A DNA stretch of 64,000 nt from the IMG/VR virus record IMGVR_UViG_3300045988_162923; one strand, given 5' to 3'. Numbering within the stretch: position 1 is the first letter of the stretch; each line of letters begins with the position of its first letter. Origin of the DNA: a virus. The notes under the pieces are model-generated. The model was not told where the DNA came from and did not search any database. It was given only the letters and a program-made list of their open reading frames with translations. Positions 6,763 through 60,937 of this stretch are shown one piece after another. A program made the translations under genes and the position numbers.

Positions 6763-6827
6763 ATATTCACACCTTTCATAAAATTCTTCTTTTATATATT
6801 ATAACATAAAATAATAAAAAAATCAAC

Positions 6828-6858
6828 CCAAGGCGATTTTTATCTCGCCTTGGGCCTA
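6828..6858 (-). terminator. rho-independent terminator hairpin
   Basis: CCCAAGGCGAGATAAAAATCGCCTTGGG followed by TTGATTTTTTT (T-tract doubles as -35) after the stop of gene 6864..7853. Confidence 0.55.
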
Positions 6859-6863
6859 TCTTA

Positions 6864-7853
6864 TTAAGACTGAGGAACTAATTCTTCCTTAATCTCATTA
6901 ATAATTAAACTAATGAACTCTGCCTGATCCATTGTAGCTTCTGAAATTTTCTTACCCTTACCAAGATACTTTTCAATAACTCTTGTAACACGAGGAGCAT
7001 AATACTCAGAATTCTTTGCCATTAAATCACCAACTAATTGCTGGAATTCAGCCATTAAAGCATCATAATCATAATTCTTAGCAATAGAAGTTGCTTCACG
7101 CTGATCAGTAACAAATTTATTATCATACATCTGAGCTTCCTTGTCAATAGCATCATTCAATGCCTTAACCAAATTTTCATAAGAAAATTCAATAGAAGGA
7201 ACAATATACTTAAAACGGCAACCAGTTTCAGCACTGTTATCAACAGAACGTAGGATTAAACGAACTTTAGCTTCACCATTTTCAGTATATTTTTCAGCAT
7301 AAGCATAAATATCAGCCATATTCTTAGCAATATCATTGTAAGAAGTAGGGCAAGTAGGAACAATTTGATTATACTCTACGCCAGTCTTAGTCTTAAAAGT
7401 CTTATCTTTACTATGAGAAATAAAAACGACAGCATAACCAAGCTGAGCAATAGTTCTAAACATTTCCTCAAACTCTTTCTTTACAAGGGTCCAGCCTTGT
7501 CCATAAGGAATACCAGAAAGAGTATCTACACTATTCTGTGCGCAAATATATTTTTCGCAGAACTGTCCAGCAATATCAACTGTATCAACTGCGATAGACT
7601 TGAATCTCTCTTTTACTTCTGGCTTTTTCAATTCTCGAAGAATTTGCTTCATATCGCCCCAAGAAGTAATATCCTGTGCTAATACGCCAGGCAAAGCATT
7701 ATATCCTCGTTCAAAAGCAAGAATCAATGCTGAAGGCATATGAGAGGCAAAAGTAGTTTTACCAGATTTTTCAGCACCATAGATATAAGTAATATATCCA
7801 GAAAGATCACGACTGACCTTATGAGGAGTAAGGTCTAACAGATTAATAGCCAT
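6864..7853 (-). CDS. P-loop ATPase (Sak4/RecA-like AAA family)
   Basis: Walker A GAEKSGKTTFA; hydrophobic stretch then D (Walker B-like); intact 329-aa ORF. Confidence 0.55.
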   Translation of the reverse strand: MAINLLDLTPHKVSRDLSGYITYIYGAEKSGKTTFASHMPSALILAFERGYNALPGVLAQDITSWGDMKQILRELKKPEVKERFKSIAVDTVDIAGQFCEKYICAQNSVDTLSGIPYGQGWTLVKKEFEEMFRTIAQLGYAVVFISHSKDKTFKTKTGVEYNQIVPTCPTSYNDIAKNMADIYAYAEKYTENGEAKVRLILRSVDNSAETGCRFKYIVPSIEFSYENLVKALNDAIDKEAQMYDNKFVTDQREATSIAKNYDYDALMAEFQQLVGDLMAKNSEYYAPRVTRVIEKYLGKGKKISEATMDQAEFISLIINEIKEELVPQS

Positions 7854-8009
7854 TATTTAATTTTCTCCTTTTTCTCCAATTCAAATAATTTACAATATTC
7901 ATTTAGTAATTTATCTATTTCTTCTTTATTTAACAAAACATCATCATCATATAATATATTTAGTTTAGCACGATGGCCTCTAGGGAGGCCATCATCTATT
8001 GGCTATTTA

Positions 8010-57437: not shown

Positions 57438-58001
57438 TTAAATACTTGGGAAAATATAATTTAATTTTTCTTTATCAGGTATTTCTGAATTTAATTCATC
57501 CATTTTAGCTATTATATTTTGAACTAATTCTTGCTCTTCAAAAAATTTATTTTCATTAATAATTGAAGTTAATAACATATTTAATACTAATAATCTTAAT
57601 GGTTTAAAATAAAAATTATTAATATTATTAAAAATTTTCTGTCTAAAGAATGAAAATTCTTGTTTTATAAAATCATCAAAATGATTTTCCTTTAAAATAT
57701 AAAATTGAAAAATAAATGAAAAATCATCAACATTAAATAATTCTTTAGAAAAATCAAATTTTACTAAATAATAATTTAATTGATTAATAAAATTTTTAAC
57801 ATTTTCTAAAGTATCTATATTATATAATTTTATTAAATTTCCTAAGAAATTACTTAATAAATAAATTTTATCCTAATTCGATATTGATTTTATTAAAGAA
57901 TTTAAATCAAGATATGCTTGATCAATCTATTCTTCTTCAGCATTATCTTTTATTAAAATTAATAAATTACTCAGTGATTGAATAATCTTTGTATTATCCA
58001 T
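57438..58001 (-). CDS. hypothetical protein (187 aa, 2 TAG)
   Basis: AAAGGAGAATAAACTT then ATG at 58001; TAA stop at 57438. Confidence 0.35.
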
Positions 58002-58019
58002 AAGTTTATTCTCCTTTAA

Positions 58020-58631
58020 TTATTTACTTACACTACTACATGTATTTCCACAATTAGCACAAGAAGATCCGCAGCTGCCTGAACAATCTCCAGAATAACA
58101 AGAACTCGTACATTGTCCACTACATCCATTACTTCCGCAATTGCTTGAACAAGTTGTATTGCAATTACCTGTACAGCTTCCACTACAACGTCCATCGCAA
58201 TCGCCTGAACAGCTTCCACTACAGCCAGTACAGCTTCCACTACATCCTGAGCATCCGCTATCACACCGTCCAGTACAACTATAACATAGTCCTGTACAAT
58301 TACCATTACAATCAGTCGATTTATTATTATAATAGCTAGTCGTGTTCCATGAACTAATTAATGATTCCATTTTAGATAAATCTTCTTCTTTAATCCTTTT
58401 ATCTTTTCCTTCAATATCAGAAATTTTTAAAGAATTAATAGCGTTCATAGGTATCGCATTTTTTTCATAATGTTCTTCTTTAATTTTATTTCCAGTAGCA
58501 GGAATTATAGTAAAATCATACTAAGAGCCCGCGTAAGAAGTAACGGAACAACTTTTATTATTTCTTCTATTACATTCTGCTTTTACTTTACTCTTTAAAT
58601 CTATAAAACGGGTAGAAGAAATCCTTGCCAT
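58020..58631 (-). CDS. protein with N-terminal about 100-aa domain and C-terminal Cys-Ser-Gly repeat region (CSGSC-type repeats, 30 or more Cys); possible radical-SAM substrate or metal-binding structural protein
   Basis: GGAGGAATTAAT then ATG at 58631; one TAG; C-terminal ...CTGLCYSCTGRCDSGCSGCSGSCTGCSGSCSGDCDGRCSGSCTGNC... Confidence 0.45.
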
Positions 58632-58684
58632 ATTAATTCCTCCTTTTATTTATTATAATATATTTTTATTAGAAAGTCAAATTT

Positions 58685-60937
58685 TTAAATACGGAAAAAC
58701 GGAGATAAACCACGACTATATCCAACTATCGTTGTTACTGATGTAAGTCCCGTTGTTCTTATAGCTACAAATTCATTTTCATCATCATAAGTCTAAGACC
58801 TTGTATAATATATAATATCTTCTGTTGATTTAGCATGATCATATTTTATAGGAGTTTTCTATTTAAAATATTCATACTAACTCTATTTACTCTATTCATA
58901 AATATTTGCTATATTCCGTTTTCCTAAAATTTCAAATTCACTCAATAATGGTAAATAATCAATAGTTGCTGTAATATTAGCTTCTATATTAGATTTATTA
59001 CCTTTGTTATCAGTATAAATAGTTATAGGTTTTAAAATATTACGCAAATCAACCGGTAATGCTGCCATTAATGTATTTTTTACAGGTGATATAGGACAAT
59101 CCATTGTGGCATTATATCCAATGCATTCTGCCGTTTTAGTTGTACCATAATTTAAAGGAGGAATATTAGTACTACCCAATATATCATATCTAAGATCACA
59201 GGCTGCCCAACCTCCATAATTATAATTTCCTTTATGATTTATGTTAAAAATTTTAGTACCATCGGTTTTAGAAGAGCCATAGGAAGAAGTGAAAGCAATT
59301 TCTATTCCTTCTGGATTTTGTCCTATTCCAAAATCTATTGTATTAGTTGTGCCATCATGATTAAATCCTAAAATAATGCAATAGTATGGACTATTATTAA
59401 ATGATAGATTGCTTCCCACCTATCCATTTAATAAAATTTGTTTTTTATCTCCTACTTTAAATATAGTTTTCGCTCTTCCTGTAGAAGCTAACTCTTTTAT
59501 ATATTTCCAAGAGCAGTCATTTAAAGGAATTGACTTATTAGGTATCCAAATACCTTGATTAAAAAAGAATGGAGTAGAAATTTTTTTCCATTTTTCTTCA
59601 TTATTTTCTTGTATCTTTATATAAGTCTAAGTTAATGGTGTCCATTCTTCATTTAAATAACTTTCATAACCAAATAAAGATATATCAAATTTATTATTAA
59701 AATAAATCTAATTATTAGCTAAATCATATAAAGTATTATTATTATTCACTCGTACTGGAATATAATAATGTTTTAATACATTATTATCATATATTTTAAA
59801 CCAACGTACCTTTACTCCATTAGCAAAATTTGTAGCTGTATCATCAGAATTATCAGCTAATAAATATAATTCTTTTTTCCTAGAAGTAGTAGTACTAAAA
59901 GTTGTCGCTGTATGCGTTATAGTTATTTCATCATTGCCAATTATTGAAGTTATATTTTTATTCTTATATACTTTAAAATATTGTTTATTATTATAATCTA
60001 TAGTATTTTGATTATTATTATAATCGTCTCTAATCTAATTATTTATTATATTAAATCCATACTAATTAGTGCTGGTAGCTGAGGTAGAATAACGACTTCC
60101 AAAAATTGATAAAGTATTTGTTGTACTTGGAATATAATCAATTAAGCATTCTACTCCTAAAGTTTCAGTAGGTTTTATACCAGTGTTAATATAACAATTA
60201 GTTTTTCCAATTATATTTTTCAAAGGAATAATAGTAGGAGTTAATGTAATATTAGTAATAGGTCCAGCTTCAAAATTACTTTCAGCACTTGAAGTATGAT
60301 CCTAAATTGGTAAAAATGCTCCAGTAATTTTATCATATAGTCCTATACGATTTGATATATTATTTCTTGCTGGAACTAAATCTCTTATTAATTTATCCCC
60401 TTCATAAAATTTACAACCATATATTATAAAATTCTATCCAGAAGTCTAAGTTCCTTCATAATTGTATCCATTTAAGAAGATGGGATAAGTATTACAATAA
60501 TTAGGGCGAGATATTGAAGTAAATACAGTTTTAGTATCTTGAGTAACTCCATCTATATCCCATCCATTATTATAAAATTTATATGTATGTTTATCAGCTA
60601 CAGAAAAATTTGTAATTGCTCTAGAATGTAATGATGAAGAATTCCAATAGACATATGGTCTATTTAAAGTATTTCTATAAATATACATACTCCAATAAGT
60701 ATGTACTATAGAACCTGATGAGCTATAATCATAATCTCGTCCAAATAAATAGTAGCTTGATGTTGGTGCGGTTGTAAAATTTCCTTGAACAGTATATTCC
60801 ATTACTAAATTAACTGATGGTAAAATACCAGTATCTATATACTATGTTGGAGATGTTTTTATGTATTCTAATTGAGTGTAAGATGGAATTTCTATATTGG
60901 GTATGACAGGCTAAGATTTAATATATAAATTATTCAT
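58685..60937 (-). CDS. tail fibre protein (about 750 aa, many TAG)
   Basis: ATG at 60937; frame open only with TAG as sense; encompasses table ORFs 60446..60802 and 58892..59419; Asn/Thr/Tyr-rich. Confidence 0.45.

Follow-up and report, generated by a model that had tools for sequence, protein, structure and literature searches.

Repeated, probable promoters of housekeeping-sigma type, about two fifths of them fused to candidate terminators, in an uncultured phage family that reads TAG as sense

Promoters of one type on the coding strand

This study concerns a 64,000-nucleotide stretch of viral DNA, IMG/VR record IMGVR_UViG_3300045988_162923 (the window, in what follows), in which a promoter-like element recurs 21 times between positions 6786 and 58684. 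With a probability of about 80%, the elements are the standard strong promoters of this phage for the holoenzyme carrying the housekeeping sigma factor of its host (sigma-A/sigma-70 family), and about 40% of them appear to be fused to a terminator. All copies lie on the minus strand, which is the coding strand with nearly all of the genes. The common pattern is TTGAyT, a 17-nt spacer composed of a T-run and an A-run, T(A)TGnTATAAT, and then ATtTATAgAAA.

Promoters were scored with a 45-nt position weight matrix built from the window sites. The 21 sites score from 25 to 50 and the best remaining minus-strand site scores 13.7, in agreement with the original prediction of more than 20 copies over this range. 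The sole plus-strand match (19.2) arises from the palindromic spacer at the 26303 site read in reverse; the spacer core, TTTTTATAAAAA, is a perfect palindrome. When both strands of the window were searched for TGnTATAAT, 21 occurrences were found against 11.0 +/- 3.5 expected. Each of the 16 minus-strand occurrences is preceded by TTGAyT at exactly 17 nt, with only A and T in the spacer, and is followed by ATtTATA, while none of the five plus-strand occurrences has any of these. A generic sigma-70 scan was uninformative in such AT-rich DNA, giving 107, 109, and 135 sites where about 110, 94, and 120 were expected. Thus, only the extended motif discriminates.

As a control for circularity, sites were selected on the hexamers only (TTGAY[AT]-N17-TATAAT). 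This selection recovered 20 of the 21 window sites and one chance site inside gyrB, and the spacer and downstream profiles reappeared, as did the T-A-T-G profile upstream of the -10 hexamer. The -35 hexamer is TTGAY[AT] in 20 copies (TTGACA at 11673) and TTGTAT in one, while TATAAT and the spacing of exactly 17 nt are found in all 21. TG occupies positions -15 and -14 in 16 copies, and T-A-T-G-n-TATAAT is the extended -10 with the -16 region (TRTG) of Gram-positive bacteria. The hexamers, the spacing, and the TRTG motif are those of a promoter of the housekeeping-sigma type, as had been proposed, and recognition by sigma-A and high promoter strength may be expected from this anatomy.

Transcription would start about 7 nt after TATAAT, inside the AT-only discriminator and start region ATtTATAgAAA. 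The distance from the predicted start site to a downstream start codon or tRNA is 6-75 nt in 19 of the 21 cases. The start region would lead into a leader of usually 10-30 nt with a Shine-Dalgarno sequence, or directly into a tRNA gene. The claim that the leader is repeated nearly verbatim holds for a subfamily of four copies (-35 at 31654, 26343, 33398, and 54780). The 25-nt leader ATTTATAGAAAGTTAAGAAAGGAAT is exact in two of them and nearly exact in the other two; their minimum distance is 5 against a shuffled mean of 11, and none of 1000 column shuffles was as alike. The claim fails for the remaining copies, which have only ATtTATAgAAA and a Shine-Dalgarno sequence in common. Recent duplication of a single unit was rejected as the origin of the hairpins and the core and was kept only for this four-copy leader subfamily. 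The sequence TATAGAAAGTTAA is present in 30 of 377 unique family contexts.

Conservation in related phages

Is this promoter type common in related phages? About 160 IMG/VR loci, on contigs of up to about 200 kb, were retrieved with GyrA, NAMPT, and major vault protein (MVP) queries. In 3.2 Mb of these relatives, the weight matrix finds 526 matches on the coding strand and 3 on the opposite strand. The sites are often at orthologous positions, and promoter-bearing relatives reach down to about 46-50% GyrA identity. The selection on hexamers only gives 283 unique sites on the coding strand and 11 on the other. In these sites, the T-run after the -35, the A-run, T-18, T-16, and the ten bases after the -10 are conserved at 75-94%, and the start-region profile ATaTATAtAA appears unprompted. 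The T, T, G, and A of the -35 are kept at 90-100% family-wide, the two T residues of TRTG at 90% and 83%, and the G at -15 at 53%. The family consensus is TTGAtTTTT..AAAAAaTATgaTATAAT ATaTATAtAAa.

The motif was expected to serve as a marker for relatives, and it does. A 40-nt degenerate pattern has at least 120 matches in contigs of metagenome-assembled genomes (MAGs) from animal and human guts, against about 0.03 expected from a hand estimate based on base composition. Many of the matches lie on contigs of 140-176 kb that look like phages, were assigned to MAGs of a wide range of taxa, and are probably mis-binned. For this reason, the genome scan did not lead to the host. The full pattern also occurs once in a cultured Oscillospiraceae genome, that of Oscillibacter valericigenes An860 (L204, 6879-6918), where it sits ahead of small open reading frames (ORFs) in a low-GC island (0.41 against about 0.55). 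The island is possibly a mobile element and is a weak clue to the host. A megablast of 10 kb against GenBank phages gave no match, and the best GyrA matches are gut contigs at 42% identity.

Terminator-like hairpins fused to the promoters

In eight of the 21 copies, a strong hairpin was found with its 3' arm reaching to or into the -35, with folding energies from -16.5 to -24.7 kcal/mol. The -35 elements of these composite copies start at 48235, 41567, 37156, 33398, 31654, 27355, 13230, and 6826. They have the form of intrinsic terminators, with stems of 10-15 bp and the tail (TT)GATTTTTTT as the U-tract, a form that the other 13 copies do not have. Seven of the 13 terminator-like hairpins of at least 10 bp that a scan listed on the minus strand belong to composite copies, and folding added the eighth (31652-31680). 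Family-wide, such a stem is found upstream of 34% of the promoters, compared with 8% of random positions. The proposed overlap of the terminator T-tract with the -35 holds in the composite copies. The proposal of a single repeated cassette of terminator, promoter, and leader does not, since only eight copies have the hairpin and the hairpins are unrelated to one another in sequence (the minimum distance of the 40 nt upstream is 18/40, against 19.2 in shuffles).

The hairpins of the composite copies contain GC, and their 3' arms would end in, or pair with, TTG(AT) of the -35; the T-run in the spacer would double as the U-tract of the terminator. The transcripts are predicted to end in the TTGATTTTTT tract after the eight hairpins. 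Since the hairpin shares the -35 and the T-run with the promoter, one intergenic region of 60-70 nt could end one transcript, shield the next promoter from read-through, and start the next transcript. Such a fusion of terminator and promoter would give both insulation and compaction.

The element at 6786-6856 illustrates this arrangement. Its hairpin (6825-6856, 12 bp) overlaps the -35 TTGATT (6821-6826), which is followed by TGTTATAAT, and the element precedes a gene beginning MAHKV with an in-frame TAG. Nine orthologues of this element have quite different stems, with energies from -16 to -26 kcal/mol (z from -4.6 to -6.9), and these stems often take in UUG(AU) of the -35. The orthologous hairpins thus keep their structure and not their sequence, as predicted for a functional terminator.

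The other composite elements are likewise on the minus strand. One lies downstream of gyrA at 13190-13260 (hairpin 13228-13260, 14 bp) and precedes the DNA ligase gene, and another at 27315-27379 (hairpin 27353-27379) stands before a metallophosphatase gene. Those at 31614-31680 and 33358-33432 have the exact and the nearly exact leader, respectively; the hairpin of the former, at about 31652-31680, includes the TTG of the -35, and that of the latter spans 33399-33432. The element at 37116-37190 (hairpin 37155-37190) precedes an exonuclease and an RNA ligase gene. After the MVP gene lies the element at 41527-41601 (hairpin 41566-41601, 15 bp), in which a breakpoint with a close relative falls exactly at the -35. 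The element at 48195-48268 (hairpin 48241-48268, -35 TTGTAT) follows a gene with an SLH domain, and its unit is one of the few real one-gene units.

Transcription units and TAG recoding

Between successive promoters there are 0-12 called ORFs or tRNAs, with a mean of about four, and a single gene is found in only two or three units. The units would therefore be operons of about four genes and not the one-gene units that the original prediction had proposed; the MVP gene is the third ORF and the methyltransferase gene the second ORF of its own unit. The unit of the promoter at 31654 consists of NAMPT, Macro, NAD synthase, and NADAR genes, and that at 33398 of a small ORF (90 aa), an isochorismatase gene, and a PRPP-synthetase-like gene. 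Twelve small ORFs follow the promoter at 41567.

The promoters without a fused hairpin are distributed along the same strand. The most upstream one in the order of transcription (58640-58684) heads a unit of five ORFs, most of them with TAG, including a radical-SAM/SPASM gene. Four units (-35 at 54780, 53015, 52811, and 52310) contain tRNA genes. The promoter at 54740-54784, with a nearly exact leader, precedes an interrupted tRNA-Thr(UGU); that at 52975-53019 would drive a circularly permuted tRNA-Tyr gene (52834-52967); that at 52771-52815 precedes a structured leader and an interrupted tRNA-Leu(UAA); and that at 52270-52314 stands directly before tRNA-Gly and a tRNA array. The promoter at 47862-47906 (-35 at 47902) belongs to the methyltransferase module, has an atypical spacer, TTAGCTAAAGTTTT, and heads a 203-aa ORF and the Eco57I-type methyltransferase gene, while that at 46009-46053 (-35 at 46049) heads the DUF2828/VWA gene and then the MVP gene. 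Further promoters are at 34607-34651, at 26303-26347 (exact 25-nt leader, before genes for a PNK-like kinase, a metallophosphatase, and an SPFH protein), and at 23335-23379, whose unit has the PhoH/PIN and CHAP/amidase endolysin genes, both with TAG. The promoter at 19346-19390 (-35 at 19386) starts a window-specific 1.2-kb segment with a GIY-YIG homing endonuclease upstream of gyrB, and its unit runs from gyrB to gyrA. The promoter at 9350-9394 has a leader, ...GAAAGTGAG, that is kept in relatives.

The promoter at 11673-11717 has TTGACA and the weakest spacer match. A small hairpin, AAGCTAAAGGCTT, lies at the predicted start of its transcript (about 11640-11670), and relatives retain the stem with an altered sequence (L004, AACCGAGAGGTT; L021, AAGCAAGCAAAAGTGCTTG). 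This covarying hairpin might stabilise the 5' end or have a regulatory function.

The phage reads TAG as a sense codon. The coding density rises from 0.737 to 0.905 once TAG is read through, and real genes have early in-frame TAGs (MAHKVKCIYC-TAG-Q in the window and gyrB in a relative). In-frame TAGs are present in the MAHKV gene and in the genes for DnaB, a RecJ-like protein, the endolysin, DNA ligase, and the radical-SAM protein. In contrast, the region from about 23000 to 48000, with auxiliary genes for NAD salvage, RNA repair, and MVP, is nearly free of TAG. No suppressor tRNA (CUA) was found in the window or in the relative L122. Do the cassettes mark only early, TAG-free genes? This was ruled out, because TAG-rich units, including those with DnaB, the RecJ-like gene, and the endolysin gene, lie behind the promoters at 58680, 23375, 11713, and 6826, and the TAG-containing PhoH/PIN and radical-SAM genes are also headed by these promoters. 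Since the same promoters precede TAG-free and TAG-containing units, they are not a purely early class. The promoters are not discussed in the recoding literature that was found. One promoter class for both standard-code and TAG-containing genes would fit a role of recoding, and not of promoter switching, in helping to time late functions.

Indels, module exchange, and alternative explanations

Several points weigh against promoters read simply by the host holoenzyme. The conserved T-run/A-run spacer and start region exceed the known contact needs of sigma-A, which may point to a further factor from phage or host. Thirteen of the 21 copies have no fused terminator. Finally, one promoter type stands ahead of both TAG-free auxiliary genes and TAG-containing replication and lysis genes. 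The 75-94% conservation of the spacer and start region under the hexamer-only selection, the palindromic spacer core with its reverse-strand matrix match, and the use of one motif for TAG-free and TAG-rich genes could all be accommodated if the motif were read through the spacer and ATtTATAgAAA by a phage sigma factor or a phage-modified host polymerase. I regard this as quite improbable. The hexamers, the 17-nt spacing, and TRTG are the textbook consensus of a housekeeping sigma factor, the motif also occurs in the low-GC island of the cultured Oscillibacter genome, and no sigma factor or RNA polymerase domain was found among the 38 window proteins scanned, the window being part of a 200-kb genome. 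It is far less probable still that the elements are repeats for replication, packaging, or transposition. Their repetition and AT-richness are all that speaks for it, while they are strictly co-oriented with the genes, lie 10-30 nt and a Shine-Dalgarno sequence ahead of start codons or directly before tRNA genes, and match the promoter consensus perfectly; inspection of indel junctions by eye showed neither terminal inverted repeats nor target duplications, although no inverted-repeat search was run.

The uniformity of the elements might instead come from recombination between copies that inserts, deletes, or swaps modules, in which case the elements would primarily be mobile regulatory cassettes, like the promoter-early stem-loop (PeSL) cassettes of T4-like phages in the full sense. 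Cassette-like shuffling of this kind had been part of the original prediction. Compared with the 95-98% identical contig 3300045988_151351, the window has 16 indels or replacements, about six of them with a junction at the edge of a cassette. From close pairs across all loci, joined in a spanning tree, 302 de-duplicated indel events with 1047 breakpoints were obtained. When the region from -45 to +65 of a -35 was counted as near a cassette, 11.6% of intergenic breakpoints were near cassettes, compared with 10.8% of intergenic bases. Thus, breakpoints are not enriched near cassettes. Within these regions, 26 of 57 breakpoints, at 17 distinct promoters, fall in the 10 nt just 5' of the -35 (binomial p about 5e-13). 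The likeness of the four leaders, beyond what column shuffles allow, also speaks for exchange between copies.

The methyltransferase module (46054-47940) is the one case with a PeSL signature, as judged from its flanks. It has its own promoter and lies between a degenerate promoter remnant, TTGAAATTTTATAAAACATATGGTATAAG (47909-47937, minus strand), as the left repeat, and the intact promoter at 46049, with the right-hand junction 4 nt 5' of the -35 of that promoter. The relative L159 has no methyltransferase module and has a single hybrid promoter at the site. On the other hand, inserts between two promoters account for only seven listings (about 4-5 distinct events) of the 302, and the promoter positions are stable across relatives at 50-75% protein identity. 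The hairpins of different copies are unrelated, as described above. Many other indels are homing endonucleases (GIY-YIG/NUMOD, HNH-like, and PD-(D/E)XK) or tRNA-gene inserts without a connection to the cassettes. These results suggest that mobile cassettes in the full sense are unlikely. Module boundaries seem to respect the promoter, and recombination between promoters would be at most a minor source of variation.

Several free-standing genes of the homing-endonuclease type were found among the indels between nearly identical genomes (window 18209-19407 and 10320-11288), namely a GIY-YIG/NUMOD gene before gyrB and a gene with a GIY-YIG C-terminal domain. An HNH-like gene lies in an insert of the relative at window position 28813-28816. 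A 1.7-kb insert with an unannotated 272-aa ORF was also found between tRNA-Ala and tRNA-Cys (49525-51263).

Comparison with known systems

PeSL cassettes were described in T4-like myoviruses (Arbiol et al. 2010, PMC2839356; Comeau et al. 2014, PMC4122927). By definition, a stem-loop lies immediately 5' of an early promoter of the sigma-70 type, and a Shine-Dalgarno sequence and a start codon are at the 3' end (PMC4122927). Recombination between copies yields mini-circles (PMC2839356). PeSL cassettes are, in addition, preferentially associated with indels or replacements that separate close relatives. This is the closest known system, and the design found here is of a known type and not new. 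The eight composite copies have the defining order of stem-loop, near-consensus sigma-70 promoter (N17), Shine-Dalgarno sequence, and start codon; there are many copies per genome among accessory genes; some indels lie at their edges; and degraded half copies are found beside swapped modules. The differences are that the present phage has the Gram-positive extended -10 (TRTG) consensus and a conserved T-run/A-run spacer, that the stem, found in only eight of the 21 copies, physically overlaps the -35 while the spacer T-run forms the U-tract, and that copies stand at the head of replication, lysis, and tRNA units as well and are not confined to hyperplastic regions. Moreover, breakpoints show no statistical excess near the copies, and the phage reads TAG as sense.

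The elements resemble Gram-positive sigma-A promoters in TTGAca-17-TATAAT and in the T-R-T-G directly 5' of the -10. Such promoters reportedly have the TRTG motif in the -16 region (Helmann 1995; Voskuil and Chambliss 1998). Compared with compilations of cellular promoters, the spacer and the first ten transcribed bases are far more uniform in this phage family. The promoters PN25, P25, and P26 of coliphage T5 and the host-takeover promoters of Bacillus phage SPO1 are many, nearly identical, and very strong promoters for the host sigma factor. Their AT-rich spacer and initially transcribed region are conserved as well, and these promoters head short operons with strong ribosome-binding sites. 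The same uniform style of spacer and start region is seen here, but the present class also precedes genes expected to be late, such as the endolysin gene, and has the terminator fusion.

Circularly permuted tRNA genes

Behind the promoter at 53015 there is no ORF. Instead, it was found that a tRNA-Tyr(GUA) gene with swapped order lies at 52834-52967 on the minus strand. It begins with the leader AAGACTT-TAACAGCAA (AAGACyT-TAACAGCAA across homologues), followed by the anticodon loop and the 3' strand of the anticodon stem. Next come the variable arm, the T-arm, the acceptor 3' strand with A and CCA, and the 6-nt spacer CTATAT. The acceptor 5' strand and the D-arm follow, then the anticodon-stem 5' strand, and at the end a trailer that base-pairs with the leader. 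Homologues were found in relatives (L122, L123, L129, L130, L132, L154, L161, and L282-L307). In 18 distinct homologues, 96.8% of the cells are paired, 11 pairs are changed on both sides, and none of 500 shuffles matches this. All six helices covary, including three of the five pairs of the long-range anticodon stem. A local alternative stem, in contrast, shows no compensatory change. When the pieces were re-joined in silico, tRNA-Tyr(GTA) was obtained in 18 of 18 cases.

Further permuted tRNA genes were revealed in the relatives by a covariance model and a structural screen. Their acceptor, T, and D arms vary, while they share an AGRC-N-CAGCAA leader, and the trailer stays complementary as the sequence changes, so that this pairing covaries widely. 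Examples are at L139 2413-2524 and 6302-6434, L217 3209-3321 and 4403-4523, L158 2732-2840, L171 603-739 and 2768-2889, and L154 about 2050-2200, and others are in L173, L185, L193, L228, L242, L252, L253, L262, L271, L285, L286, and L307. Dozens of such genes, with diverse acceptor and anticodon arms, are present in the relatives; many lie within tRNA arrays, and several have no encoded CCA. One subgroup has Leu-like class II bodies with the break between the anticodon arm and the variable arm. Automatic assignment of the anticodon was ambiguous for genes broken in the anticodon loop, because it depends on where the pieces are joined. The permuted genes are reported by neither Rfam nor ARAGORN, Rfam has no group I intron or ribozyme around the permuted tRNA, and no paper describing permuted tRNA genes in phages was found in the literature searched. 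The family is apparently new to phages.

The leader motif (AGGC...CAGCAA) is also present ahead of normal tRNA genes at 52700-52772 and 51862-51876 on the minus strand. One of these copies has a complementary GAGCCTT about 50 nt downstream that encloses no tRNA, and the other has no obvious partner.

Interrupted tRNAs and neighbouring genes

Two tRNA genes on the minus strand are split in the anticodon loop, tRNA-Thr(UGU) by a 461-nt insert (54209-54669) and tRNA-Leu(UAA) by a 289-nt insert (52370-52658). Both inserts are absent from the 95-98% identical relative, in which ARAGORN calls both tRNAs as intact. The insert in tRNA-Leu lies between U34 and A35, the classic site of group I introns, and that in tRNA-Thr encodes a PD-(D/E)XK endonuclease. 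Rfam gave no group I intron or ribozyme match in either insert.

The window has an RNA heal-and-seal set (24931-27310, 34785-36155, and 37176-38976) consisting of the PNK-like kinase (25516-26145), three calcineurin-type metallophosphoesterases, an RNA ligase, and an RlaP-like nucleotidyltransferase. The Macro and NADAR domains adjoin the NAD salvage genes. The MVP-like gene (block 41618-45939, minus strand) encodes 828 aa with MVP shoulder and repeat domains and lies downstream of the DUF2828/DUF7788/VWA gene. The GC content of this block is 0.40 compared with about 0.30 elsewhere, and the MVP-like gene is kept at 56-99% identity in about 40 phage contigs.

Implications for the phage family

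With the promoters and their fused terminators, a precise and searchable grammar would become available for a large family of uncultured phages from gut and rumen, which are TAG-recoded and about 200 kb in size. This grammar predicts operon boundaries, and its compact terminator-promoter parts may be of use in AT-rich Firmicutes. The PeSL concept would be extended beyond T4-like phages of Gram-negative hosts, with a shuffling role that is at most minor here. I also propose, tentatively and at somewhat less than an even chance, that the cassettes form a uniform transcription backbone of a TAG-recoded gut jumbo phage in which timing is mainly post-transcriptional, with at least one cassette expressing the permuted tRNA-Tyr.

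The permuted tRNA family matters more than the promoters. The permuted tRNAs might be matured by circularisation or ligation with the kinase, phosphoesterase, and RNA ligase set of the phage. If they give rise to working tRNAs, these genes would, to judge from the literature searched, be the first of the permuted kind to be reported from a bacterial virus. Their maturation, if true, would be a new layer of control over phage translation, and a functional family would pose a new RNA-processing problem in bacteria and phages.

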